A stretch of 33,643 nt of DNA, taken from an uncultured archaeon (lineage in GTDB: Archaea; Aenigmatarchaeota; Aenigmatarchaeia; CG10238-14; SCSR01). The stretch lies in the NCBI GenBank assembly GCA_964514495.1, contig CAZERL010000003.1:1-33643 (forward strand), written 5' to 3'. Under the pieces are notes generated by a model, which saw only the letters and a list, made by a program, of their open reading frames with translations, ran no database searches and was not told the DNA's origin. Made by a program: the position numbers and the translations under genes. Of the stretch, positions 5,403 to 28,885 are shown in pieces; positions within the stretch are counted from its first letter, which is position 1, and each line of letters starts with the position of its first letter.

Positions 5403-6014
5403 TTAAGCTTTGGCTTCTGCTGCTTCTTTTGGATTTTCGGATTTTTGCTCTTGCTTGACTTCTTCCTTCTTTTCTGCGGGCATTGCCTCGGGTTCTTTTT
5501 TGGCTTCAGCAGGCTTTTCTTCTTTTTTCTCGGCTGGTTTCTCTTGGCTAGGCTCTTCCTTTTTCTCTTTTGGTTTTTCTTCCTTTACTTCTGCAGGTTT
5601 CTCCTGCTTTGCCTCATCCTTCTTCTCCTTCGGCTTCATTGGAACCAATTCTTCCAAAGCCTTCTCGCCCTTTTTTACAACCTTTACATTGATTTGCGTG
5701 ATGTCTGTTGATAAGGCATCTCCCCTTACAGTCTTCCTCTTCCTCTGCCCCTTTAATTTCGGATAAAACCCTGGAGGACCACTCAGCAGAACTCTTCTCT
5801 TGCCAGGACCTTTTACTGATGGCATCATAGGAAAACCATCTTTATCAGTTCCGCCAGTGATTTTCAAAGTATAACCGACTAAATCAATCAAATCCCCAGA
5901 GAACTCGTCACCGATTTTCTTGTTGACCAAAGAAATGGCTTTGGCTTGGTCTATCTCTTTTTGGAATGATTTCCTTGTCTGCGGTTCGGAAATAACGAAT
6001 TTGAATGCTGCCAT
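5403..6014 (-). CDS. rps6e: 30S ribosomal protein S6e with charged low-complexity C-terminal tail
   Basis: FKFVISEP, LKITGGTDKDGFPM, GQRKRKTVRG, QINVK; ~75-aa E/K/P/A tail. Confidence 0.95.
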   Translation of the reverse strand: MAAFKFVISEPQTRKSFQKEIDQAKAISLVNKKIGDEFSGDLIDLVGYTLKITGGTDKDGFPMMPSVKGPGKRRVLLSGPPGFYPKLKGQRKRKTVRGDALSTDITQINVKVVKKGEKALEELVPMKPKEKKDEAKQEKPAEVKEEKPKEKKEEPSQEKPAEKKEEKPAEAKKEPEAMPAEKKEEVKQEQKSENPKEAAEAKA

Positions 6015-6068
6015 ATTTTCTGTAATTGGTTATTGCATTTATTTAAAGGTTTTTTCTACTGCTAAGAT

Positions 6069-6410
6069 TTACATTTTGATATAAGACTTCGTGAGCTTTA
6101 CGGCACCAGTATTTTCATCTATAACAGCTTTACCCAATTGTAAAAAATCATGTCCTATAAGGTTCTTCCTACCACCCGTTACCAAAAGACCAAACTTACA
6201 ATTATATATTTCAACCATAGCCCCATATAAAAGTTTTTTATCTTTGTATTCACCAGCTGTTACTATAGTCTCACTTCCTAGTTGGGGGGCACCTAGCCTT
6301 AACAATACCTCCTCATCAATCATAGTCCGTTCGGCACCAGTGTCAATAACTGCTTCTATTTCCTCAGACTTCCCGTTAATTGAAATTAGAGCTTTCTTAA
6401 CAATTTCCAT
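6069..6410 (-). CDS. Retropepsin-like (clan AA) aspartic protease
   Basis: AVIDTGA catalytic motif and LIGHDFL motif; 113 aa single domain. Confidence 0.82.
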   Translation of the reverse strand: MEIVKKALISINGKSEEIEAVIDTGAERTMIDEEVLLRLGAPQLGSETIVTAGEYKDKKLLYGAMVEIYNCKFGLLVTGGRKNLIGHDFLQLGKAVIDENTGAVKLTKSYIKM

Positions 6411-6469
6411 AAATCAATATTTGTTTTCACATAATAAACCTTGCACTGCTTCAAGTCTTCTTTAGAAGT

Positions 6470-6514
6470 TTAGTCATAATTTCTGCCCAAAAAGCATTTA
6501 AAAACATTTATATA
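6470..6514 (+). promoter_or_regulatory. Putative aro-operon promoter (TATA TTTATATA 6507-6514, A-rich BRE) with degenerate upstream palindrome
   Basis: TTTATATA ~40 nt before leader ATG 6547; TTAGTCAT-N5-CTGCCCAA (6470-6490) resembles the trp-promoter palindrome. Confidence 0.55.
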
Positions 6515-6546
6515 CTTAATCATGTAATTTTAATTAAGTGAATTGA

Positions 6547-6615
6547 ATGACCATAGTTCATAGAACTCAGGCCATAACTTGGCAATATTTCTATAGCTTT
6601 AGCTATGGTCAATAG
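6547..6615 (+). CDS. Putative aromatic-rich leader peptide MTIVHRTQAITWQYFYSFSYGQ (22 aa)
   Basis: 6 of the last 11 codons are W/Y/F; sits at the predicted transcript start; ATG lies within the stem TGACCATAGTT(6548-6558)/AGCTATGGTCA(6601-6611). Confidence 0.72.
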   Translation: MTIVHRTQAITWQYFYSFSYGQ

Positions 6616-6692
6616 ATGCCAGATAGTTGATTTATTTCTTGCATCTTATCTGGAGGTTCTAATTGACATATCAACAAAAAAGGGGTGAAAAT

Positions 6693-6767
6693 ATGGATAA
6701 CAAAGGTGAATTAGTTTGGAAGCAAGGTGAACGCCTTTACACAAAGGGCGAGTGTCTTTTCAAGTAG
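6693..6767 (+). other. Zero-frame sensor ORF MDNKGELVWKQGERLYTKGECLFK with three putative +1 frameshift cassettes (Trp, Tyr, Phe) leading into aspartate kinase
   Basis: Strong SD GGGGTGA-N4-ATG; cassettes GGT GAA TTA GTT TGG (6705), GGT GAA CGC CTT TAC (6726), GGC GAG TGT CTT TTC (6747); the +1 frame is the kinase frame and opens at 6715, right after TAG 6712-6714. Confidence 0.78.
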
Positions 6768-7890
6768 ACCTAAGATTATAAAAATTGGAGGCTCATGTTT
6801 AAGTTCAACAGAAGATATCAAAAGAATTGCTGATATACTTATTGGTCGAATTTCAGATAATGAAAAATTAGTAATTGTAATTTCTGCAATGAAAGGGGAT
6901 ACGGATAGGTTATTGGAATTGGCCAATTCTATTTCACCTAACGTTAGTAAAGAAGATCTTGATCAAATATTGTCAATAGGAGAACGTCTTTCATCTAGGC
7001 TATTAACAGCCGAACTAAAAAGCAGGGGCATTTCAACTAGGTTAATAGATCCAGACAATGCAGTTATAATTACAGATAATATTCATGGCGATGCTAATCC
7101 TATAATAGAATTTACAAAAGAAAAGGTAAACGACAAATTAGTTCCCTTGTTACAAAATGGTACTACTATAGTTACAGGTGGCTTTTTTGGCAAAAGTACT
7201 AGTGGCAAAACGACAACATTGGGACGAGGGGGAAGTGATTCTACAGCAGTTCTTCTTGGTGATTGTTTAAACGCAGAAGAGATAGTTCTTTTAAAAGATG
7301 TAGATGGCTTATTAACTTCTGATCCCAAGAAAAATAAAAATTCAAAACTTATCAAAAAAATTACTGCAGAAGAAGCATTCATTCTTAGCTGTAGTGGAGC
7401 TAAGATTATACAACCTAAATCTTTGAAGTTAAAACCTGCAAATGTTCCAATAAAAATAGTTGGGAATGGTTCTATAGGGACAGTAATAGAAGGTAGTCTA
7501 AAATTAATAAACCATGATGAAAGACCTGTAGCCTTGTTAACTGTACTGACATCTAATATAGAAGCAGTACATGGCATAAAAAATCTAACGATGGTTAGAG
7601 ATGATAAGAGTGCAACACTAATTATATTTCAAGAAGATGTTTCAAAAGCAATTGATGAATTAAACCAATTAATAGAAAAAAGTAAGGCAAAAGCCTTTAC
7701 TGTTAAAGAAAATCTTGGATTAGTTTCAATAAAATCTAGCTCAGACACAATTCCTAAAATAGTAAATTCTTTGGAACAATCTGGTATACAAATTGAGAAT
7801 ATCATTTCAACACCTTCTACAATTAACATTCTCATCAAACTTTTTGACACAGATAGAACCGTACAGCTTTTGAAAGAGGTGATAAGATGA
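6727..7890 (+). CDS. lysC: Aspartate kinase (probably translated from ATG 6693 via +1 frameshift)
   Basis: IIKIGGS, VISAM, GER, TTLGRGGSD, DVDG..TSDP, GAKII; C-terminal ACT-like region; the only in-frame start before the N-terminal motif is a GTG inside an SD-like motif. Confidence 0.93.
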   Translation: MNAFTQRASVFSSRPKIIKIGGSCLSSTEDIKRIADILIGRISDNEKLVIVISAMKGDTDRLLELANSISPNVSKEDLDQILSIGERLSSRLLTAELKSRGISTRLIDPDNAVIITDNIHGDANPIIEFTKEKVNDKLVPLLQNGTTIVTGGFFGKSTSGKTTTLGRGGSDSTAVLLGDCLNAEEIVLLKDVDGLLTSDPKKNKNSKLIKKITAEEAFILSCSGAKIIQPKSLKLKPANVPIKIVGNGSIGTVIEGSLKLINHDERPVALLTVLTSNIEAVHGIKNLTMVRDDKSATLIIFQEDVSKAIDELNQLIEKSKAKAFTVKENLGLVSIKSSSDTIPKIVNSLEQSGIQIENIISTPSTINILIKLFDTDRTVQLLKEVIR

Positions 7891-10654: not shown

Positions 10655-11348
10655 GTTGACTTCTATGATCAGAATATGCGCAAGTATAACTGAAAGCAAT
10701 ATAGAAGATTGCCTTAAAGCTATTTCCAAAGCAAAAGAACTAGGTGCCAGAATAGTAGAACTACGTATAGACTTTTTGGATAACCATGAAGAGATTTCAA
10801 AAATAATTCAGCAGGCAAAACTACCTTTAATAGCGACAAACAGAAGTAAAAAAGAAGGCGGGGAATTTGAAGGAAATGAAGAAGAAAGGATTAATAGTCT
10901 CATCAATGCTATTGACGATGGATGTGAATTTGTTGACATAGAGTTAAATACAAACAAGAAATTGAGAGGACGAGTTACAAATCTTGCAAGAAGAAACAAA
11001 TGTGAAGTAATAGTTTCTATTCATGATTTTAAGAAAACTCCTAATATGAAAAATTTAAATAAATTATTAACTGAAGAAAAAGCGATAGCTGACATAGGGA
11101 AAATAGTTACTTTTGGTAACAAAAATGAAGATACTATAAAAATTTTCAATTTATTGAGAATAGCCAATTCTAGAAATTTCCCTTTGATAACTTTTGCTAT
11201 GGGTTCTTTATGTAGTTTCTCTAGAATAGTGGCTCCACTATTTGGTTCATATTTAACATATGTGTCGGTAGGCAAACCGTCTGCAATTGGACAGATGAAC
11301 ATAAGGGAGATGGTAAATGTTTACAAGCAATTAGGTGTGAAAATATGA
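10632..11348 (+). CDS. aroD: Type I 3-dehydroquinate dehydratase
   Basis: ICASI, VELRIDFL, IATNR..EGG, VDIEL, SIHDF..TP, FAMG, SRI, SAIGQ; true start probably ATG 10665. Confidence 0.93.
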   Translation: MNTVWKNELTSMIRICASITESNIEDCLKAISKAKELGARIVELRIDFLDNHEEISKIIQQAKLPLIATNRSKKEGGEFEGNEEERINSLINAIDDGCEFVDIELNTNKKLRGRVTNLARRNKCEVIVSIHDFKKTPNMKNLNKLLTEEKAIADIGKIVTFGNKNEDTIKIFNLLRIANSRNFPLITFAMGSLCSFSRIVAPLFGSYLTYVSVGKPSAIGQMNIREMVNVYKQLGVKI

Positions 11349-12205
11349 TTTCTAGCAAAACTAAATTATTATGCCTTATAGGCAATCCTGTAGAGCATAG
11401 TATATCACCTCAAATGCATAATGCTATGTTTAAAGAATTGAATTTAGATTTCGCACTTGTCTCATTCAAAGTTGAAGAAACTGAATTGTCTGATGCTGTT
11501 AAAGGTATTAGAGCATTAGGCATAAAAGGAGGCAATGTAACATTACCACACAAGACAAGCATAATGAAACTTTTAGATGAAATAGATGACTCATCAAAAG
11601 AAGTGGATTCTGTAAATACTTTTTTAAATGATAATGGCATACTTAAGGGGTTCAATACAGATGGTATAGGTGCGTTAAAGGCTTTGGAAGAAAATGGTAT
11701 ATCACTTAAAAATAAGAAGGTCGTCATTATTGGTGCAGGTGGTGCATCAAAATCAATATCACATGTTGTTGCAATGGAAAGTCCATCTGAACTTGTGATC
11801 TTAAATAGAAATATAAGTAAAGCCAAATCAATCGCAGACAAGATAAATAAAAAACTTGGTAAGAAAGCAAGAGTATTTGAACTAAGTTCAGAAAATTTAA
11901 AATCAGAATTGAAAGATACCGATATACTAATTAATTGCTCATCAGTTGGTATGAAGCCCAATTTAAATGAAACTACTGTGTCTAAAGAATTTCTTCATAA
12001 AAATCTTACAGTAATGGACATTATATACAATCCATTGGAAACTAGACTACTAAAAGAAGCCAAATCAGTAGGGGCAAAGACAATTAACGGTATTGGCATG
12101 TTGGTTAATCAAGGTGCCTTAGCGTTTGAAATATGGACTGGTAAAAAAGCTCCTGTTGAATTGATGAGAAGAGTTGCAATAGAAAACTTGAAGGGATTTA
12201 CATGA
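11345..12205 (+). CDS. aroE: Shikimate dehydrogenase
   Basis: IGNPVEHSISPQMHN, GGNVTLPHK, SVNT, GFNTDG, GAGGA, DIIYNPLET.LL, MLVNQG. Confidence 0.96.
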   Translation: MISSKTKLLCLIGNPVEHSISPQMHNAMFKELNLDFALVSFKVEETELSDAVKGIRALGIKGGNVTLPHKTSIMKLLDEIDDSSKEVDSVNTFLNDNGILKGFNTDGIGALKALEENGISLKNKKVVIIGAGGASKSISHVVAMESPSELVILNRNISKAKSIADKINKKLGKKARVFELSSENLKSELKDTDILINCSSVGMKPNLNETTVSKEFLHKNLTVMDIIYNPLETRLLKEAKSVGAKTINGIGMLVNQGALAFEIWTGKKAPVELMRRVAIENLKGFT

Positions 12206-17220: not shown

Positions 17221-18053
17221 AAGTAGCAATAATTGGTGGAGCGGGGAAAATGGGTAAGTGGTTTTGTAATTTTTTCCTAAATGAAGGATATGAAGTAATA
17301 GTTTCTGGTAGAAAGGAAACCAAACTAAATAAATTAGTTAAGCAATTTAATGTGAAATCAGCGAAGAACAATATAGAAGCTATAAAAAATGCTGATTTGA
17401 TAATGATTGCTGTCTTATTTCAAGATTTTGAAAGTGTAGTAAAGGAAATTGCACCCGCTATTAATAATACCCAAAAAGTCGTAGATATAACATCAATTAA
17501 AGATCAACCAGTAAAAATAATGCACAAATACATAAAAAGAGGTATTACGTTGGGCGCACATCCCATGTTTGGTCCTAATGTTAAAGACAATAATCATAAT
17601 TTTGTTCTAACACCTGTAACTAAAAAAGAAAGGGCATATGCACAAGAATTTTCAAATTGGTTAACAAAGAAAGGCTTTAATGTTAGCATTATGCCACCTA
17701 GGAGGCATGATGAGTTAATGTCTACTATTTTAGGACTGCCACATTTTATAGGTCTTGTCACTGCAGATACTTTGACAAACTTAAATCTTAAAGAACTTAA
17801 AAAGGTTTGTGGTACAAGTTTTAACATGCTTTTAGAGCTCACAACTAATGTTATATCAAATGACCCAGAATTTTATTCGCACTTACAGATGATCTTACCA
17901 AAAATCAATAAAGTTGAGTCTTTATTTTCTGATAAAACTAAAAAATGGCTAACCATTGTAAATAAAGAAGATAAATCACAATTCAAAAGAGAAATGATAA
18001 AAATAGCACAAAAAAGCAAATATTTATTAGTTAGTAAGGACGAAAATATATAG
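17217..18053 (+). CDS. tyrA: Prephenate/arogenate dehydrogenase
   Basis: IIGGAGKMG, DITSIK, HPMFGP, HDELM..ILGLPH. Confidence 0.93.
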   Translation: MKVAIIGGAGKMGKWFCNFFLNEGYEVIVSGRKETKLNKLVKQFNVKSAKNNIEAIKNADLIMIAVLFQDFESVVKEIAPAINNTQKVVDITSIKDQPVKIMHKYIKRGITLGAHPMFGPNVKDNNHNFVLTPVTKKERAYAQEFSNWLTKKGFNVSIMPPRRHDELMSTILGLPHFIGLVTADTLTNLNLKELKKVCGTSFNMLLELTTNVISNDPEFYSHLQMILPKINKVESLFSDKTKKWLTIVNKEDKSQFKREMIKIAQKSKYLLVSKDENI

Positions 18054-18255
18054 ATATATCATACTTTCTAAGTTTGCCTACATTGGAGGCATATCACAGT
18101 CTGGAAAATCAAAATACCTTTAAGTGACTTCTTTATTGTCATTTAATTCTATCTTCAGCAATAACATGTCCATTTCTGCTATCTTGGTTTTGCGAGAATT
18201 GGTGCAGAATTAGGGGTAAAGTTGATTACCAAAACTTAGTAGATAAGATAAAGTG

Positions 18256-18288
18256 TAGGGCAAAAAAGTTGCCCTAAAGGTTTATAAA
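18256..18288 (+). promoter_or_regulatory. Putative trp-operon promoter: perfect palindrome TAGGGCAA-N5-TTGCCCTA abutting BRE/TATA (TTTATAAA 18281-18288)
   Basis: 8-bp perfect inverted repeat 18256-18276; TATA begins 37 nt before ATG 18318. Confidence 0.65.
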
Positions 18289-18317
18289 TACGAGTATATT
18301 AATTATAAATTGATTGT

Positions 18318-18353
18318 ATGAAGAGTGATTGTGTTTGGCATACCAAGAAGTGA
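18318..18353 (+). other. Zero-frame sensor ORF MKSDCVWHTKK with a Trp +1 frameshift cassette leading into the wHTH gene
   Basis: (G)AGT GAT TGT GTT TGG; the +1 frame is the wHTH ORF; near-leaderless ATG. Confidence 0.7.
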
Positions 18354-18624
18354 ATTTAAGATTTTCTTAGGACAATCGCTCAACAAAAAAGAAACTGAAT
18401 TGCTTCGTTCTTCCAATAGGTTACGAGGAAATACCTTTTATTATGTGGTTAAGAGGTTGTCAGAGAAGGGGTATTCACCAAGTACAATCAAATTTGTTCT
18501 AAAGCGACTTAAATATTTAAACTTGGTTGATTTTGGCGATGGCAAAAGCAGAGGCAAGCCCCTCGTATTAACTGCGTTAGGTCAGATATTCCTAGAAGTC
18601 ATCAGTGGTGAAAAGTATGGGTGA
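18325..18624 (+). CDS. Winged helix-turn-helix protein, putative transcription regulator of trp/aro genes
   Basis: Basic 99 aa protein; SPSTIKFVLKRLKYLNLVDF recognition helix and LTALGQ wing end. Confidence 0.72.
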   Translation: MIVFGIPRSEFKIFLGQSLNKKETELLRSSNRLRGNTFYYVVKRLSEKGYSPSTIKFVLKRLKYLNLVDFGDGKSRGKPLVLTALGQIFLEVISGEKYG

Positions 18625-19993: not shown

Positions 19994-20533
19994 GTGAGTC
20001 AATTAGATGAAATTAAAAATGAATTAAAAATATATTCAGATTTCCCAAAAAAAGGAATTAAGTTTTTAGATATCAGTCCATTAATCAGCAATCCAAAGAA
20101 TTTTAGAACAGTAATAAATGCTCTATACAAAAAATACAAAAATTCTGGAATAAATAAAATAATTGCTGTCGAATCTCGTGGGTTCTTGTTTGCTAGTGCA
20201 TTAGCATTGTTAATGAAAGCTCCTTTGGTTATGGCTAGGAAGAAAGGCAAACTTCCAGGTACTGTTATTAGTTATTATTACAAATCAGAATATGGTAAAA
20301 ACGTACTTGAACTACGAAAAGATTCAATTAATCCAAATGATAAACCTTTGGTACTTGATGATGTTTTCGCAACTGGAGGTACGCTTAATGCAGTTATATC
20401 CATTTTGAAGAAAATAGGCTGTTCTGATTATAGATGTTGTACAATAATAAATCTGACGGATATCGAAAAGAAATATAATCCTGGTAATGTTAACTCTTTG
20501 ATTGATTTTTCTGTTAATGGTGAGATTCTATGA
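19994..20533 (+). CDS. apt: Adenine phosphoribosyltransferase-like type I PRTase
   Basis: [50 protein letters not shown] loop. Confidence 0.88.
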
Positions 20534-24047: not shown

Positions 24048-24823
24048 CACTTATTGATGACGTGTTTAATAAATTGAGAGTCAACAAAGAGAAAGCGTTG
24101 ATTACTTACATATGCGGTGGTGATCCTGACATCAAGACTAGCATAGAAATAGCTAAGGTTGTTGAAAAATATTCTGACATAATTGAATTAGGTATACCAT
24201 TTAGCGATCCGATAGCTGACGGACCTACGATACAAAAAGCTACTGAAAGGTCACTAGCAACTGGAACTAAAACAAAAGATGTATTAAAGATTGCTTCTGT
24301 TCTTAAGAAACCAGTTGTAATAATGACTTACTATAATATAATTTACAAATATGGTATAAGGCAATTCTGCAATGATGCAAAAAGAAATAATGTGCATGGA
24401 ATAATCATACCAGACTTGCCTCCTGAAGAAGCTAAAGATATTGTAAAGCATGCTGATGGCTTGAATTTGATATTTTTGATATCACCATTCTCTACGGATG
24501 AAAGAATAAAATTAATATCTAAAATTTCCTCTGGATTTGTTTATCTTGTATCTTTGCTAGGTACAACCGGAGAAAGGGAACAAGTGTCTAAAGATGCGAA
24601 ACAATTAGTAACGCGAGTGAGAAAATATACGAACAAACCTTTAGTGTTAGGATTTGGTATATCCAAGCCTGAGCATGTCAAGACTGCATTAAGTTATGGT
24701 GCAGATGGTGTAGTGGTTGGTAGTGCGATTGTAAAGTTAATAGAACAGAATTTAAGCAACAAACTCGATATTTTAAATAAACTAGAAACATTTTGTAGAA
24801 GATTGAAAGAAGCAACAAGATGA
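24044..24823 (+). CDS. trpA: Tryptophan synthase alpha subunit
   Basis: [51 protein letters not shown]. Confidence 0.97.
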
Positions 24824-25947
24824 TAGCAATGACTAAAGAATTTGTAGTCACACCATGGGAAGTTAAAGGTGATATTGATTATGATAAGTTGGTAAAGCAG
24901 TTTGGTGTAAAGTTAATCGACGATTCAATTCTAAAGAGAGTGGAGAAACTTACTGGAGAATTGCATTATTTCCTTAAGAGAAAGATTTTCTTTTCTCATA
25001 TGTATTTTGACTCGATTCTGGAAGATGTTGAAAACAAGAAGAAGTTTTATCTGTATACAGGGCGAGCCCCATCCGGACCAGTTCATTTGGGACATTTGAT
25101 TCCATGGATATTTTGCAAATGGTTGCAGGATAAATTAGATGTGAACTTATTGTTCCAAATACCCGATGAAGAGAAGTTTTTCTTCAAGGAAGAACTGACA
25201 TTGGAAGATACGAAGAAATGGGCTTATGAAAATATACTAGATATAACAGCTATTGGGTTTGACCACAAGAAGACGAAGATATTTTTGGATACAGAATATG
25301 CAGGACATATGTACAAGTATGCTTGCTTGGTTGCAAAGAAAACCACATTATCTACTGCCAAAGCCTTGTTCGGATTCAATGATTCTAATAATTTGGGTGA
25401 AGTATTCTATACAAGCATGCAGTCTGTACCGTCATTTATGCCTACTATACTGGAAGGTAAATCAACGCAGTGTTTGATTCCTTGTGCCATAGATCAGGAC
25501 GTCCATTTCCGTTTAACCAGAGATGTTGCGCCGAAGATAGGATATCCAAAGCCAGCAACTATACTTTGCAGATTTTTGCCAAGCCTTGCAGAGGGAGGGA
25601 AGATGTCTACCTCAGTCGAAAATACAGCAATCTTTACTAACGATAAACCAGAACAAGTTAGAAATAAAATTTTGAAATATGCATTCTCTGGGGGAAGGGA
25701 TACTGTAGAAGAGCATAGAAAGAAGGGTGGTGTGCCTGAGGTTGATGTATCTTACCAGTATCTTACATACTATCTTGAAGATGACAAGAAACTAAAGAAA
25801 ATTTATGAAGATTATAAGTCTGGGAAAATGCTGACTGGTGAACTTAAAGAAATTACAATTGGGTTAATAAACAAATTCTTGAAAGACCACCAAAATAAAA
25901 AAGAGAAGGCAAAAGACGTGATCGAGAAATTTATGTTAAGAGATTAA
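24820..25947 (+). CDS. trpS: Tryptophanyl-tRNA synthetase (archaeal/eukaryotic type)
   Basis: VTPWEV.G.IDYDKL, YTGRAPSG.VHLGH, PCAIDQD.HFRLTRD, KMSTS, YAFSGG. Confidence 0.96.
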   Translation: MIAMTKEFVVTPWEVKGDIDYDKLVKQFGVKLIDDSILKRVEKLTGELHYFLKRKIFFSHMYFDSILEDVENKKKFYLYTGRAPSGPVHLGHLIPWIFCKWLQDKLDVNLLFQIPDEEKFFFKEELTLEDTKKWAYENILDITAIGFDHKKTKIFLDTEYAGHMYKYACLVAKKTTLSTAKALFGFNDSNNLGEVFYTSMQSVPSFMPTILEGKSTQCLIPCAIDQDVHFRLTRDVAPKIGYPKPATILCRFLPSLAEGGKMSTSVENTAIFTNDKPEQVRNKILKYAFSGGRDTVEEHRKKGGVPEVDVSYQYLTYYLEDDKKLKKIYEDYKSGKMLTGELKEITIGLINKFLKDHQNKKEKAKDVIEKFMLRD

Positions 25948-25972
25948 ATAAACTAAATTTAAAAGATATTGT

Positions 25973-27232
25973 ATGACAAAGGAAGTTTTTTACAGGTTGA
26001 CAAAAGAGGGTAATGAATATTTAGAAAGGGGTTTGCCAGAAAAGAACCTTGTTGATTTCCTAAACAACCATCCTAAAAAATCTATCAAAATCGAAAAAGC
26101 AATTGCCCATGTGAAGAATTTTTCTATTGCATTGAAGTGGGCTATGGACAAAGGATGGGTCGATAGGGAAAGGGATGAAATTTTCCTTGTAAAGATGCCT
26201 AGAGAACTACCAGAACAGCAGGCTTTGGAGAAGATAGGGAAAAATGAAACTATTGATGACAAATTATTGGAAATTTTACTGCAAAGAAAATTGGCTGAAA
26301 AGGCTGTGATTAGTGATGTTGATAAATTAATTGGGAAGGAGGTAACGGATGTTACACCAGAATTGTTGAAGACCGGGATATGGAAACAAGTCAAGTTCAA
26401 ACCTTATAATGTTGAAGCTGTGGGAAAGAAGGTTTATGCAGGCAAGAGACAACCCTATAACCGATTTTTAAAACAGGTCAGACAGAGTTTAGTTGAATTG
26501 GGCTTTGAAGAGATGACTGGTCCTTTGATTGAAACAGAATTTTGGAACTTCGACAGCCTGTACCAGCCGCAAAACCATCCTGCGAGGGATTGGACACAAA
26601 CATATCAGTTAAAATATCCAAAGGTAGGTCAATTGCCAAACAAAAATATTGTTGATAATGTAAAGAAGGCACATGAAACTGGCGTATCTGGCAGTACTGG
26701 TTGGGGATATAAATGGAATCCTAGAATTGCTATGAGATTGATGCCAAGAGCTCATGGCACTGCATTATCAGCAAGGATATTAGCAAGTAAACCAAAAATT
26801 CCTGGAAAGTATTTTGCAATGGTGAGATGTTTTAGACCTGATATCATAGATGCTACTCACGGCGTTGAATTCAACCAAACAGAAGGCATAGTCCTTGATG
26901 AAAGTTTGAATTTTAAACATCTGCTTGGAATTTTGAAGATGTTTGCAATGGAAATTGCTGGCGCCGAAAAAGTAAAATTTATTCCAGACTACTATCCGTT
27001 CACAGAGGTAAGCTGCCAATTGTCAGCGTTGCATCCTGATCTAGGGTGGATTGAATTTGGTGGTTCAGGTATATTCAGGGAGGAGCTGACAAAACCGCTG
27101 GGTGTGGATGTGCCTGTATTGGCATGGGGAATTGGTATCGATAGATTGGCAATGTTTAAACTCGGAATAAAGGATATACGCCATTTGTTCAGTCAAAACT
27201 TGGAGTGGTTAAGGAACCAAAAGGTGTTGTGA
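25973..27232 (+). CDS. pheS: Phenylalanyl-tRNA synthetase alpha subunit
   Basis: LT.EG.EYLE.GLPE, FWNFD.LYQPQ.HPARD, FRPD..DATH..EF.Q.EG, YYPFTE, WGIG.DRLAM. Confidence 0.96.
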   Translation: MTKEVFYRLTKEGNEYLERGLPEKNLVDFLNNHPKKSIKIEKAIAHVKNFSIALKWAMDKGWVDRERDEIFLVKMPRELPEQQALEKIGKNETIDDKLLEILLQRKLAEKAVISDVDKLIGKEVTDVTPELLKTGIWKQVKFKPYNVEAVGKKVYAGKRQPYNRFLKQVRQSLVELGFEEMTGPLIETEFWNFDSLYQPQNHPARDWTQTYQLKYPKVGQLPNKNIVDNVKKAHETGVSGSTGWGYKWNPRIAMRLMPRAHGTALSARILASKPKIPGKYFAMVRCFRPDIIDATHGVEFNQTEGIVLDESLNFKHLLGILKMFAMEIAGAEKVKFIPDYYPFTEVSCQLSALHPDLGWIEFGGSGIFREELTKPLGVDVPVLAWGIGIDRLAMFKLGIKDIRHLFSQNLEWLRNQKVL

Positions 27233-28885
27233 ATGCCGACTATAGAAGTTTCACACAATGATTTGTGCAGTTTAATTGGGAAGAAACTATCTTTAGGGGA
27301 ATTGAAGGATGCGATGCTATTTGCAAAGGGCGAGATAGATTCGGAAGACGGGGACTTATTGAAAATTGACATCAAAGATACGAATCGCCCGGATTTGTGG
27401 TCTGCTGAAGGAATCGCAAGAGAGATTCAAGGTAGATACACAAAAGAGATTGGTTGCCCTAGGTATTCTGTTGGCAAATCCAATGTAGTTGTCAAAGTAG
27501 ATAAGAAGATGAAAAATGTTAGACCTTATACTGTCTGTGTAGTTGCAAGGAATTTGAAATTAAACAAAGATTCTTTATCACAATTAATTCAGTTGCAAAA
27601 CAAAGTTGATCAAACATTTGGAAGAAATAGAAAGGAAGTTTCATCCGGATACTACGACCTAGATAAGATAAAACCACCAATAAAATTTACTACAGTAAAG
27701 TCAGATGGAATAAAATTTGTACCTTTAGAATTTGAAGAGGAGTTAACACCGAAAGAAATTTTAGAAAAACATCCAAAAGGTAAAGAATTTGGACATTTGC
27801 TAGCAGGCTATAAAGAGTACCCAATATTCCTAGATGCAAACGGTGAAGTTCTTTCAATAGTACCGATAATTAATTCTAATACTTCTGGTCAAATCACTGG
27901 AAAAACTAGAAATATATTTTTGGAATGCTCTGGATTCAACCTAAAGTTCTTAGTGCCGGCATTGAACGTGATGGCATGCGCTTTAGCTGACAGAGGCGCT
28001 AGGATAGAAACTGTCAAAGTGGTATATCCGGACAAAACAATGATAACGCCTGACCTTACACCAAAAAAATCTTCCGTAGAAATAGACTACCTAAATAAAA
28101 TTTCTGGACTAGGTTTAACGACAAAACAAATAATTCACTTGTTACAGCAAGCGAGATACGATTCAAAAGTGAAAGGTAACAGAATAGAAGTCTTATACCC
28201 TGCTTACAGGCAAGATATGATGCATCAAAGGGATGTCGTTGAAGATGCGATAATCTCTTATGGTTATAATAGAATTGAGCCGACTCCTCCCCGAATAGCC
28301 ACTATTGGCGGTGAAAGCAAATTATCAAAAGTTTCCGATAAAATTGCGGAGATAATGGTCGGCTTGGGATTGCAAGAAATATTGTCGTATACTTTGACTA
28401 ATAATAAGAACCTTTTTGATAAAATGAATTTCAAGGAAGAAAAAATTGTGGAGATAGAAAATGCTGTATCAGAAAATTGGAATGTTTTCAGGAATTGGCT
28501 GCTTCCAGGTATAATGGAATTTCTGTCTGCAAACAAGCATGTAGAATATCCGCAGAAGATTTTTGAAATTGGTGATGTTGTGATTATAGACCAAGGCAAG
28601 GAAACGAAAACTAAAGATGTAAGAAAACTGGCATGCGCTATTGCTGATAGTAATGCCGGTTATCAAGAAATTTCCTCTGTGCTGGAAGAATATTTGTTGA
28701 ATTTAGGTGTTGATTACAAGTTGAAAGCTATTGCACATGATTCGTTTATTGCTGGCAGATGCGCGAGCATAATAGTTGATGGAAAGCAAGTAGGTATAAT
28801 TGGGGAGATGCATCCGCAAGTTTTGGAAAATTGGAAGCTAGAAGTGCCTGTTGCAGCTTTTGAAGTTGATTTAGAGTTTATTTAG
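27233..28885 (+). CDS. pheT: Phenylalanyl-tRNA synthetase beta subunit (archaeal type)
   Basis: MPTIEV, NRPDLWSAEGIAR, RPY, PAYRQD..HQ.DVVED..I.YGYN, KIFEIG, GEMHP.VL. Confidence 0.96.
   Translation: MPTIEVSHNDLCSLIGKKLSLGELKDAMLFAKGEIDSEDGDLLKIDIKDTNRPDLWSAEGIAREIQGRYTKEIGCPRYSVGKSNVVVKVDKKMKNVRPYTVCVVARNLKLNKDSLSQLIQLQNKVDQTFGRNRKEVSSGYYDLDKIKPPIKFTTVKSDGIKFVPLEFEEELTPKEILEKHPKGKEFGHLLAGYKEYPIFLDANGEVLSIVPIINSNTSGQITGKTRNIFLECSGFNLKFLVPALNVMACALADRGARIETVKVVYPDKTMITPDLTPKKSSVEIDYLNKISGLGLTTKQIIHLLQQARYDSKVKGNRIEVLYPAYRQDMMHQRDVVEDAIISYGYNRIEPTPPRIATIGGESKLSKVSDKIAEIMVGLGLQEILSYTLTNNKNLFDKMNFKEEKIVEIENAVSENWNVFRNWLLPGIMEFLSANKHVEYPQKIFEIGDVVIIDQGKETKTKDVRKLACAIADSNAGYQEISSVLEEYLLNLGVDYKLKAIAHDSFIAGRCASIIVDGKQVGIIGEMHPQVLENWKLEVPVAAFEVDLEFI

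Follow-up and report, generated by a model that had tools for sequence, protein, structure and literature searches.

Can an archaeon sense its amino acid supply through a ribosome that reads a short leader ORF? In bacteria this principle is well established: trpL, pheL and hisL act by ribosome-mediated transcription attenuation, as in the pheA and trp operons of E. coli. Archaea couple transcription and translation and terminate transcription differently from bacteria; no archaeal leader-peptide amino-acid sensor was found in a full-text literature search. The question is raised here by a 22-codon ORF, rich in aromatic codons, which sits in the 316-nt gap preceding a 22-kb aromatic supraoperon. 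The ORF was found in a window (the whole stretch of DNA analysed) of 33,643 nt, belonging to an archaeon with a 1.04-Mb genome, hereafter G000.

Genomic setting of the leader

The operon was delineated by Pfam scans and the ORF map, and is organised as follows:

6727–28885, + strand: aromatic supraoperon
First block, ending at 18053: aspartate kinase (AK), ASD, ADH synthase (aroA'), DHQ synthase II (aroB'), aroD, aroE, aroK, aroA, aroC, chorismate mutase, prephenate dehydratase, aminotransferase and prephenate dehydrogenase
Gap between the blocks: a promoter and a 99-aa ORF
Second block: trpE, a PRT-domain gene, trpG, trpD, trpC, trpB, trpA, a class I W/Y tRNA synthetase, PheRS alpha and PheRS beta

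According to the Pfam assignments, the cluster makes all three aromatic amino acids and includes the W/Y and Phe tRNA synthetases. The operon is missing from the genomes of the same genus and the Logan contigs from other samples part from the window directly after 6501–6505, so that the region looks like an acquired island, in which remnants are to be expected. A relative, P0002 (80% identity), is encoded on a Logan contig of 11,165 nt. Among the 371 genomes of the phylum, AK, a true aroA' and aroB' occur together only in G000 and in a second genome, G053; the true aroA' of these two share 50% identity, and every other match in the phylum lies at 33–39%. Two metagenome loci, L031 and L032, carry AK genes without linkage to aro genes. 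The DHQS-II genes of two further genomes, G110 and G016, are solitary.

The leader ORF and its predicted promoter

The elements at the 5' end of the leader are the following:

6503–6514, + strand: BRE/TATA-like element AACATTTATATA, the best PWM site
6525–6536, + strand: second TATA-like site TAATTTTAATTA (PWM score 8.6 bits, background frequency 0.0005)
6547–6615, + strand: leader ORF of 22 codons, MTIVHRTQAITWQYFYSFSYGQ, with ATG at 6547 and stop codon TAG at 6613–6615
6580–6606, + strand: aromatic codon tract TGG, TAT, TTC, TAT, TTT, TAT, encoding W12, Y14, F15, Y16, F18 and Y20

The PWM was built from 408 upstream regions of G000. On the + strand, between 6411 and 6719, AACATTTATATA is its top site: it scores 9.4 bits, where the median promoter has 7.4, at a background frequency of 0.0004. 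Across the genome, TATA elements peak at −32 to −27 relative to start codons and, by this leaderless geometry, the site predicts transcription to start at about 6536–6539, leaving ahead of the ORF a 5' UTR of 8–11 nt, with a partial SD only (GTGA, 6538–6541). If, on the other hand, TAATTTTAATTA were the real promoter, the start would be expected at about 6560, inside the ORF, and the reading of the ORF as a leader would fail.

Aromatic residues account for 6 of the last 11 residues of MTIVHRTQAITWQYFYSFSYGQ. A density of at least six aromatic codons in nine was reached by 10 out of 2543 small intergenic ORFs (246,330 nt of G000), four of which begin with ATG, and in 9–32 of 5000 dinucleotide shuffles of the leader. 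No convincing other amino-acid-run leader was found upstream of any G000 gene, the search giving 85 weak candidates; a W-rich candidate on contig C65 was rejected, as it lies inside a Gly-rich gene.

The start of the ORF resembles that of a gene. In fact, over its first 16 nt it agrees with the AK gene start of G053 (ATGACNATAGTTCATA) at 15 of 15 specified positions, and nothing else in the 1.04-Mb genome matches this 16-mer with up to one mismatch. Since this is the start of a real gene, the leader ORF would be a present or past working initiation site. The leader ORF and AK share the same frame, with four stops between them (TAG 6613, TGA 6628, TGA 6664 and TAG 6712). An alternative genetic code or readthrough was rejected, because both TAG and TGA occur among the in-frame stops and table 11 reads the other genes normally. 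Similarly, a bulge-helix-bulge intron at 6563–6781 (219 nt, in frame, which would yield MTIVHKIGGS) was discarded, as its junctions pair no better than 36% of random partners, and so was a repeat or mobile element, given that blastn-short matches of the leader do not exceed 16 nt, besides one 30-nt match at 90% (6434–6463, contig C15).

The next start downstream of the leader ORF comprises:

6682–6695, + strand: Shine-Dalgarno sequence GGGGTGA followed by ATG 6693, corresponding in position to the SD and start of AK in G053
6693–6767, + strand: ORF2, MDNKGELVWKQGERLYTKGECLFK, which overlaps the start of the AK frame, open from 6715

Genome-wide, the SD motif GGTG peaks at −12 to −9. The overlap of ORF2 with the AK frame had been described earlier and was found again.

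Folding of the leader RNA

The original prediction had described the locus as an attenuator-like leader peptide with mutually exclusive hairpins. The 22-codon aromatic ORF, all the stems and the U-rich tract at 6631–6640 are present exactly as it described them:

6548–6611, + strand: hairpin P1, joining the start-codon region to the last codons and enclosing the whole ORF
6608–6667, + strand: hairpin P2, with the leader stop codon in its 5' arm and an SD-like GGAGGT (6652–6657) and TTG 6663 in its 3' arm
6631–6640, + strand: U-rich tract TTTATTTCTT, in the loop of P2

The P1 stem pairs 6548–6558 with 6601–6611 over 11 bp, including a U6557–G6602 wobble, and is extended by the pairs 6560–6565/6589–6594 and by GCCA 6571/TGGC 6580. 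The window 6545–6614 has a predicted energy of −23.9 kcal/mol, equalled or bettered by 0.2% of 5989 random genomic 70-nt windows; the same stability is reached in 52 out of 15,416 intergenic windows, grouped in about 24 regions, which places P1 among roughly the 25 most stable predicted intergenic structures of the genome. P2 (GTCAAT 6608/ATTGAC 6662 and CCAGATA 6619/TATCTGG 6647) is not exceptional, its window (6605–6674) having −17.3 kcal/mol, at 3.5% of the genomic windows. The fold of the whole region 6540–6700 has z = −1.62, with 13 of 200 shuffles equally stable. The further alternative pairs, AGATGC 6614/GCATCT 6641, GTTGAT 6626/ATCAAC 6670 and TAGAAC 6561/GTTCTA 6656, are present and, being 6-mers, are trivial at 30% GC.

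The mutual exclusivity of P1 and P2 turned out to be overstated: they overlap only at 6608–6611 (4 nt), and the MFE fold of the full leader holds P1 together with the inner part of P2. Folding with ribosome-footprint constraints, which had been proposed as a check, did not reveal a two-state switch in G000. In this thermodynamic modelling the unpaired probability of the downstream SD (6682–6688) was 0.57 in the free RNA, 0.51–0.59 with stalled ribosomes and 0.20 when a ribosome occupied the stop codon, so that the effects of stalling are small and of mixed sign. The contigs of the relatives break at about 6501–6510 and resume at 6661. In one relative (L030, 98%), the 15 visible leader nucleotides (6661–6675) hold three substitutions, and the segment 6676–6780 is identical to that of G000; one of the substitutions, G6665A, breaks the P2 pair C6610–G6665 and abolishes TTG 6663.

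It had also been stated that a classical hairpin followed by polyU is missing, and this was confirmed: no intrinsic terminator consisting of a stem and then a U-run was found downstream of the leader ORF, the U tract lies in the loop of P2, and it holds no T-run longer than 3. With 8 T in 10 nt, TTTATTTCTT is matched in T density downstream of 48 out of 402 genes and upstream of 37 out of 440. T5+ runs do not mark gene ends, being no commoner after stops (89/402) than before starts, and the tract is hardly credible as an oligo-T terminator. Pairing of TTTATTTCTT with the SD region 6680–6689 (10 bp, four of them G-U) was considered and rejected, because the duplex energy of −6.9 kcal/mol is equalled by 19% of random 21-mers and is not significant. 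A scan of 5900–7300 with the Rfam 15 covariance models gave best matches with E = 0.56–9.9, all far below gathering. Taken together, the hairpins that are not truly exclusive, the missing terminator, the lack of a clean switch upon footprint-constrained folding and the P2 pair broken in L030 leave the predicted attenuator anatomy unsupported.

A second aromatic uORF in G053

The G053 genome carries an ATG-started, aromatic-rich uORF, MRSRLYFKYTQYFFTFM, between a BRE/TATA-like element (AAAGCTTTAAAT) and its AK gene. Its 108-kb contig has 146 small intergenic ORFs, of which this one alone reaches the threshold, set beforehand, of six aromatic codons in nine, and 9–46 of 5000 local shuffles of the G053 leader reach the same density. 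The layout is like that of G000: the ATG follows the start of the PWM site by 44 nt in G000 and by 43 nt in G053; the motif Q-Y-F-[YF]-[ST]-F is common to both peptides; an A6 run, an SD and an ATG follow downstream in both; and both leaders contain a TATTTCT.TA..TTTA stretch. A global alignment of the two leaders has z = 2.7, with equal scores in 1.1% of shuffles and in 1.6% of 247 real upstream controls.

In G053 the stop codon of the uORF is located 2 nt ahead of an 11-bp hairpin that buries the AK SD (−13.6 kcal/mol, 1.65% of windows; duplex −12.8 kcal/mol, 0.5%). The modelled unpaired probability of this SD is 0.00–0.04, and rises to 0.18–0.36 only with a ribosome on the last 2–3 codons of the uORF, namely to 0.18 at the last aromatic codon and to 0.34–0.36 at the last two positions. 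Because opening would need a ribosome at the very end of the uORF, early stalls upon starvation would lower the translation of the G053 AK, an effect opposite to that expected for a biosynthetic gene. A pyrimidine-rich tract, CACTTTTCTTCTC, found 10–20 nt past the uORF stop, is in the model clearly an anti-SD rather than a terminator. Rfam 15 gave no match at gathering in G053 11200–11460 (best E = 0.39).

In G053, which is 91% complete, no match was found for chorismate synthase, EPSP synthase, DHquinase I, shikimate dehydrogenase and trpE; AK, aroA' and aroB' may therefore not feed aromatic amino-acid synthesis in this organism. No uORF was observed upstream of the G053 ASD, and no aromatic uORF precedes the other AK genes of the phylum at L076, L077 and L079 (genomes G367, G370 and G183). 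This comparison covered the loci with an AK frame on the + strand, and therefore left out L078, L080 and L081, where none was found.

Proposed mechanism and alternative explanations

We propose, at roughly even chances, that the leader ORF is a ribosome-read aromatic sensor acting on translation, and not a trpL-type terminator. Its six Trp, Tyr and Phe codons, if translated, would tie the speed of the first ribosome to the supply of charged aromatic tRNAs; the position of this ribosome near the 3' end of the ORF would alter the folding of the roughly 150-nt leader, and the refolding would change the use of the next start (SD 6682–6688, ATG 6693), which leads to aspartate kinase and the aromatic supraoperon. 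The control would thus be of the translational, RBS-accessibility type, the class of ermC and of the mycobacterial Cys sORFs. P1 covers the start codon of the ORF once its 3' arm has been transcribed and, consequently, probably only the co-transcriptional pioneer ribosome would read the sensor. What the sequence shows is the ORF with its composition, P1, the promoter-like site ahead of them, the aromatic operon behind them and the G053 uORF of like layout; transcription and translation of the ORF, stalling within it and an effect of stalling on downstream expression, in either direction, are inferred.

The sensor function had been part of the original prediction. It now finds more support than before in the aromatic supraoperon, the promoter geometry and the G053 uORF, and less in the attenuator anatomy. 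In its favour are the aromatic context, the rarity of the codon density, the replication in G053 with a common layout and the stability of P1; the SD-burying hairpin beside the G053 uORF and the presence of W, Y and F together in the G000 peptide support it too. The footprint-constrained folding of G000, without a clean switch in the model, and the substitution of L030 in P2 argue against it, and so do the direction of the effect modelled in G053, the pathway genes for which G053 gave no match and the literature search without an archaeal precedent. Moreover, the predicted 5' UTR is short with a partial SD, the second TATA at 6525 may compete as promoter, and the leaders are only two and possibly of common ancestry.

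The ORF could instead be an untranslated or non-sensing by-product, namely what is left of the 5' end of an older, decapitated aspartate kinase gene (MTIVH[KR]...), running into unrelated sequence up to the first stop, with its aromatic richness due to chance and with P1 functional, for example, as a stabiliser of the mRNA 5' end or as an occluder of the old start. We consider this rather unlikely. The 16-nt match to the G053 AK start, unique in the genome, and the AK frame kept across four stops are what a stump would leave; P1 is far more exceptional than any feature linked to a switch, remnants would be expected in an acquired island, and AT-rich sequence readily encodes F and Y. Chance, however, reaches the aromatic density at a frequency of just 0.002–0.006 in local shuffles, and would have to do so again (0.002–0.009) ahead of the only other aro-linked AK of the phylum, where the uORF is separate from the AK start, hence not a stump. 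In addition, a neutral stump would not be expected to have kept its ATG intact and its frame open, with a partial SD.

Two explanations would place the control on transcription. The classical attenuator, with exclusive P1 and P2 and termination at the U-rich 6631–6640 relieved by a stall on the aromatic codons, appears very improbable: the ORF, the stems and the tract do exist, a U-rich tract with no hairpin can suffice to terminate archaeal RNA polymerase, and a pyrimidine-rich CACTTTTCTTCTC follows the uORF stop in G053; but the two hairpins coexist in the MFE fold with their 4-nt overlap, the U tract is within the P2 loop and not after a stem, its longest T-run is 3, its T density is common near other genes, and the G053 tract is predicted to be an anti-SD. 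The least probable of the readings is that of a DNA operator, in which the inverted TGACCATAG copies (6548–6556 and 6603–6611) and the TATTTCT.TA..TTTA stretch would be binding sites for a transcription factor, such as the 99-aa winged-helix-like ORF (18325–18624), the leader ORF being incidental. P1 is equally an inverted DNA repeat, this small regulator-like ORF lies inside the operon with its own TATA, and TrpY, an archaeal trp regulator, is a DNA-binding repressor. Nevertheless, archaeal repressors act at the BRE, TATA or transcription start, so that repeat arms 46 bp apart and 10–75 nt downstream of the predicted start would be unusual; the genome holds no further copy of the motif, not even upstream of the trp block, and an operator would not account for the open, ATG-started frames with aromatic codons that two genomes have.

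Comparison with known systems and significance

As in pheL and trpL, the candidate sensor is a short ORF with end-product codons, in the predicted 5' leader of the cognate operon, with its coding region within a strong hairpin. It differs from them in that G000 has neither a hairpin-plus-U-run terminator nor a clear 1:2/2:3/3:4 alternation, and in its mixed W/Y/F codons in place of a single-residue run, its archaeal host and its output, which is likely translational. In the Corynebacterium ilvBNC attenuator, studied by Morbach and colleagues in 2000, the leader peptide is reportedly made without a ribosome-binding site; the leader start with little or no SD is a likeness, whereas ilvBNC is a bacterial, terminator-based attenuator. 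The arrest peptides TnaC and SecM sense a free ligand or force via a specific nascent-chain motif, and here the analogy may extend to the principle only, a short uORF in which ribosome occupancy near the stop governs downstream expression.

An analogous mechanism is reported for mycobacteria, with the leaderless polycysteine sORFs of the 'Cys ribulon' (Canestrari et al., bioRxiv, 10.1101/834739), in which stalled ribosomes are proposed to block an RNA structure sequestering the RBS of the next gene. The likeness lies in a near-leaderless short sensory ORF as the first cistron of the operon and, in G053, in a predicted RBS-sequestering hairpin beside the uORF; the differences are that the main SD of G000 (6682–6688) is not clearly sequestered, that the modelled opening in G053 needs a ribosome at the very end of the uORF, and that other amino acids and another domain of life are involved.

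With a probability that we put somewhat short of even, the locus would be an archaeal first: a near-leaderless W/Y/F-rich uORF, read once by the pioneer ribosome before a stable hairpin closes its start, tuning an aromatic supraoperon of 22 genes that a DPANN-like archaeon acquired horizontally. It would be common to a second family of the phylum, and in G000 it may be stacked on a +1 shift into aspartate kinase that depends on a Phe codon (CTT TTC). As a candidate the leader is compact and clearly delimited, and a second natural variant is available for comparison. If true, the leader-peptide principle would have been re-implemented in archaea without bacterial terminators, and a reduced DPANN-type genome would regulate in this way an acquired biosynthetic island. 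Leader-peptide sensing has so far been described only in bacteria, and this leader may be an archaeal ribosome-based amino-acid sensor.

Leader ORF and P1 Hairpin

The 22-codon aromatic-rich leader ORF (6547-6615, plus strand), together with all the stems and motifs claimed for it, was found where the original prediction had placed it. The outer stem of P1, the hairpin enclosing the ORF (6548-6611), has 11 bp, one of them G-U. Genome-wide, 2.09 million codon positions contain 402 clusters with at least six W/F/Y in nine codons, and the same threshold was passed by 10/2543 small ORFs (8-45 codons, starting with ATG, GTG or TTG, from 246,330 nt of intergenic sequence of the genome), 4 of these 10 having an ATG start; dinucleotide shuffling of the leader sequence gives this aromatic density in 9-32/5000. 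The 70-nt window of P1 (6545-6614) folds at -23.9 kcal/mol, a value matched by 0.2% of 5989 random genomic windows and reached in 52/15,416 intergenic windows, in about 24 regions. For the downstream hairpin P2 (6608-6667) the value is -17.3 kcal/mol, which 3.5% of genomic windows match, and the 161-nt fold as a whole has z = -1.62. The two hairpins had been proposed to be mutually exclusive; instead, they have just four bases in common and both are present in the minimum-energy fold. Nor does the U-rich tract stand out as an element, since its T-runs do not exceed 3 and such T density is common upstream and downstream of genes. Thus, the leader ORF is real and unusual, as is P1, and the competing hairpins plus U tract are not.

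Gene Neighbourhood

The window is one contig of an archaeal assembly of 1.04 Mb (130 contigs, 95% complete), and the genome sizes of its relatives, 0.3-1.5 Mb, suggest a DPANN-like organism. The leader sits in a 316-nt gap (6411-6726, 30% GC), and Pfam scans identified an array of genes on the plus strand at the other side of this gap.

Features flanking the leader ORF (gene assignments by Pfam)
6069-6410, minus, divergent from the leader: aspartyl-protease-like gene, retroviral-type domain (PF13975/PF13650), 113 aa
Array start, plus: aspartate kinase (AK), aspartate-semialdehyde dehydrogenase (ASD), DeoC/LacD aldolase (ADH synthase, aroA'), 3-dehydroquinate synthase II (DHQS-II, aroB')
Shikimate genes, plus: aroD, aroE, aroK, aroA, aroC
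Phe/Tyr genes, plus, the last ending at 18053: chorismate mutase, prephenate dehydratase, aminotransferase, prephenate dehydrogenase
18054-18624: gap between the Phe/Tyr and Trp blocks, with GC-rich hairpin, strong TATA and 99-aa ORF
Trp genes after the gap, plus: trpE, PRT-domain gene, trpG, trpD, trpC, trpB, trpA
19994-20533: the PRT-domain gene of the row above (PF00156, phosphoribosyltransferase), inserted between trpE and trpG
24820-28885, plus, directly after the trp genes: class I W/Y tRNA synthetase and both PheRS subunits

Because of this gene content, the leader ORF heads an aromatic amino-acid supraoperon, the context that makes an aromatic-rich leader ORF meaningful, and aromatic biosynthesis and aromatic tRNA charging may be co-transcribed. 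The 18054-18624 gap contains the hairpin GGGCAA..TTGCCC (about 18257-18277), the strong TATA GGTTTATAAATA and the 99-aa ORF, which gave no Pfam match and resembles a winged-helix regulator of small size. The start of the 99-aa ORF is overlapped by an 11-codon ORF (MKSDCVWHTKK, then the stop; ATG 18319) with one Trp codon. The aspartyl-protease gene has a TATA-like TTTATTAT about 20 nt from its own ATG. Upstream of the leader promoter, 6434-6463 matches 14683-14712 of contig C15 of the same genome (30 nt, 90%, E = 0.004), perhaps as a promoter or operator motif common to both places.

Promoter and Predicted Transcript Start

Upstream of the start codons of this genome, TTTAWA peaks at -32 to -27, a position indicating that many mRNAs are probably leaderless, and GGTG peaks at -12 to -9. 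A promoter PWM refined on 408 upstream regions has AAnnTTTAAATA as its consensus, and its sites most often begin at -36 to -33. The highest-scoring plus-strand site anywhere in the gap is AACATTTATATA at 6503, with 9.4 bits and a frequency of 0.0004 in the background. From this site, transcription is predicted to begin near 6536-6539, and the 5' UTR would then be 8-11 nt long and carry a partial SD, GTGA, at the 5' end. Another site, at 6525 and with 8.6 bits, would put the RNA start near 6560, within the leader ORF, and a promoter there would be the simplest way for the leader reading to be wrong. Scanning of the gap revealed no TATA-like site near 6631; therefore, a leader of at least 130 nt would precede the main SD (SD2, GGGGTGA, 6682-6688) and ATG 6693.

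Resemblance of the Leader Start to an AK Gene Start

The first 16 nt of the leader ORF, ATGACCATAGTTCATA (6547-6562), equal the first 16 nt of the AK gene of G053, a genome of another family of the same phylum (11401-11416 in its locus L029), at 15/15 specified positions, the peptides being MTIVHR and MTIVHK, respectively. Local alignments as good as that of the two starts arise in 0.2% of shuffles and in 0.13% of genomic chunks, and the motif has no further copies in the leader's genome at up to one mismatch. The leader ORF and the AK of its own genome share the reading frame, with four stops between. From this sequence likeness, we read the initiation region of the leader as probably descended from a genuine AK start. 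If so, ATG 6547 would serve, or would once have served, as a working start, and an origin of the leader ORF as a leftover stump would also be possible. A spliced intron joining the leader start to AK was tested and dropped. The AK starts of two further genomes, G367 and G370, have TTAATTAA..AATTGA..ATGAC-like upstream sequence in common with the leader.

A Second Aromatic uORF in G053

In the phylum, represented by one class of 371 species genomes, DHQS-II is present in 4 and AK-like genes (E of 1e-25 or better) in 8. True aroA' was found only in the leader's genome and in G053 (50% identity); the other 28 hits, at 33-39% identity, have an aldolase-like appearance. In G053, aroB' and aroA' on the minus strand are followed by a gap of about 155-170 nt and then by AK.

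Features upstream of AK in G053 (positions in L029)
11258-11269: BRE/TATA-like site AAAGCTTTAAAT, fitting the consensus as judged by eye
11301-11354: uORF with ATG start, MRSRLYFKYTQYFFTFM and stop, 7 aromatic residues of 17
11401: ATG of AK, MTIVHKFGGG

By the aromatic threshold set beforehand on the leader's genome, this uORF is the sole passer among 146 small intergenic ORFs of its 108-kb contig, and its local shuffles pass in 9-46/5000. The ATG comes 44 nt after the PWM-site start in the leader and 43 nt after it in G053, both peptides have the motif Q-Y-F-[YF]-[ST]-F, and in both the aromatic tract is followed by GTCAA and a pyrimidine-rich stretch, with an A6 run, SD and ATG closing the leader. 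The alignment of the two leaders is modest (z = 2.7); shuffles score as high in 1.1% of cases, and the 247 real upstream regions in 1.6%. No aromatic uORF was found at three other readable AKs of the phylum, whatever their aro linkage.

In G053 (91% complete), searches for chorismate synthase, EPSP synthase, DHquinase I (aroD), shikimate dehydrogenase (aroE) and trpE found no match, and its ASD is on another contig, without a uORF. Its AK/aroA'/aroB' may thus serve something other than aromatic amino-acid synthesis, and the reasoning that treats G053 as a replicate is weaker for it; by gene content, L029 and a further locus, L123, look like an early aromatic pathway, truncated. A Tyr/Trp-type tRNA synthetase adjoins aroB' in this genome.

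Close Relatives

The nearest AK relatives in the protein collection, P0001 (98%) and P0002 (80%), have 387 aa each and a shared N-terminus, the next match being a Bathyarchaeota MAG at 37%. Relatives' contigs from the right (the JGI contig L030, from the 98% relative, and one Logan contig) both start at 6661, and left-hand contigs stop at about 6501-6510 in 4/4 sequencing runs. L030 has 3 substitutions in 6661-6675 (G6665A, T6669C, C6672T) and 0 in 6676-6780: G6665A disrupts the P2 pair C6610-G6665 and abolishes TTG 6663, and C6672T leaves a G-U pair in the alternative stem GTTGAT/ATCAAC. Logan contigs of one run, X6, are about 90% identical over 6300-6500, then unrelated past 6501-6505, and DHQS-II gave no match in the same-genus genomes (0/3). 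For these reasons, the supraoperon and leader together resemble an island in the lineage, putatively acquired, with its left edge at the promoter (about 6501-6506).

Folding and Proposed Mechanism

In G053, the SD of AK is buried in an 11-bp hairpin (UCAACACUUUU paired with AAAAGGUGUUGA; -13.6 kcal/mol, at 1.65% of contig windows; duplex at 0.5% of random partners), and the uORF stop precedes this hairpin by 2 nt. In constrained folding with the ribosome modelled as a 30-nt footprint, this SD was unpaired at 0.00-0.04 in free RNA and with the ribosome along most of the uORF. The value rose to 0.18 once the A site held the last Phe codon, and to 0.34-0.36 for a ribosome at the last sense codon or the stop. 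Since the modelled SD opens at the uORF end, AK translation in G053 should depend on a ribosome reaching or lingering there. The switch picture of the leader under study is weaker in the same model: the unpaired probability of SD2 is 0.57 without a ribosome, 0.51-0.59 when one stalls and 0.20 when one sits at the stop, the values for ATG 6693 lie between 0.10 and 0.64, and the sole anti-SD candidate, the U tract, was not significant in the pairing test.

In the proposed mechanism, the supply of charged aromatic tRNA would set the ribosome dwell time on the uORF, which would act on downstream translation initiation. Since the start codon of the leader ORF is buried in P1, sensing would be limited to ribosome loading during RNA synthesis: only a ribosome loaded on nascent RNA would read the sensor, P1 hiding the start codon thereafter. 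The G053 counterpart of P1 is weaker (UGAGAAG with CUUCUCA, -8.7 kcal/mol, 3.4% of random partners).

ATG 6693, with a good SD ahead, opens the 24-codon ORF2, ending at TAG 6765-6767; the AK frame, +1 relative to it, is open from 6715. The overlap has CTT TTC (6756-6761), where a ribosome on an empty Phe codon would move into the AK frame by slipping +1, CTT to TTT. Across 6676-6780, L030 is identical to the window, and the N-terminal differences of P0002, N2S and S9N, are at third positions of the ORF2 frame, if single-base changes.

Relation to Known Systems

The leader does not belong to the trpL/pheL class: a terminator and mutually exclusive hairpins were looked for, and neither is present. 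The closest systems in working are translational uORF sensors, above all the mycobacterial leaderless polycysteine sORFs (10.1101/834739). Archaeal leader-peptide attenuation was not found in the non-subscription full-text literature, and passages of PMC1262725, PMC2965389 and PMC13158618 hold nothing bearing on archaea.

The leader ORF is real and unusual, its position is highly suggestive, and it has one independent replicate. We consider the chances evenly balanced that it works as an aromatic-sensing uORF; a leftover stump or by-product, an origin that descent from an AK start would allow, is a less likely account of it.
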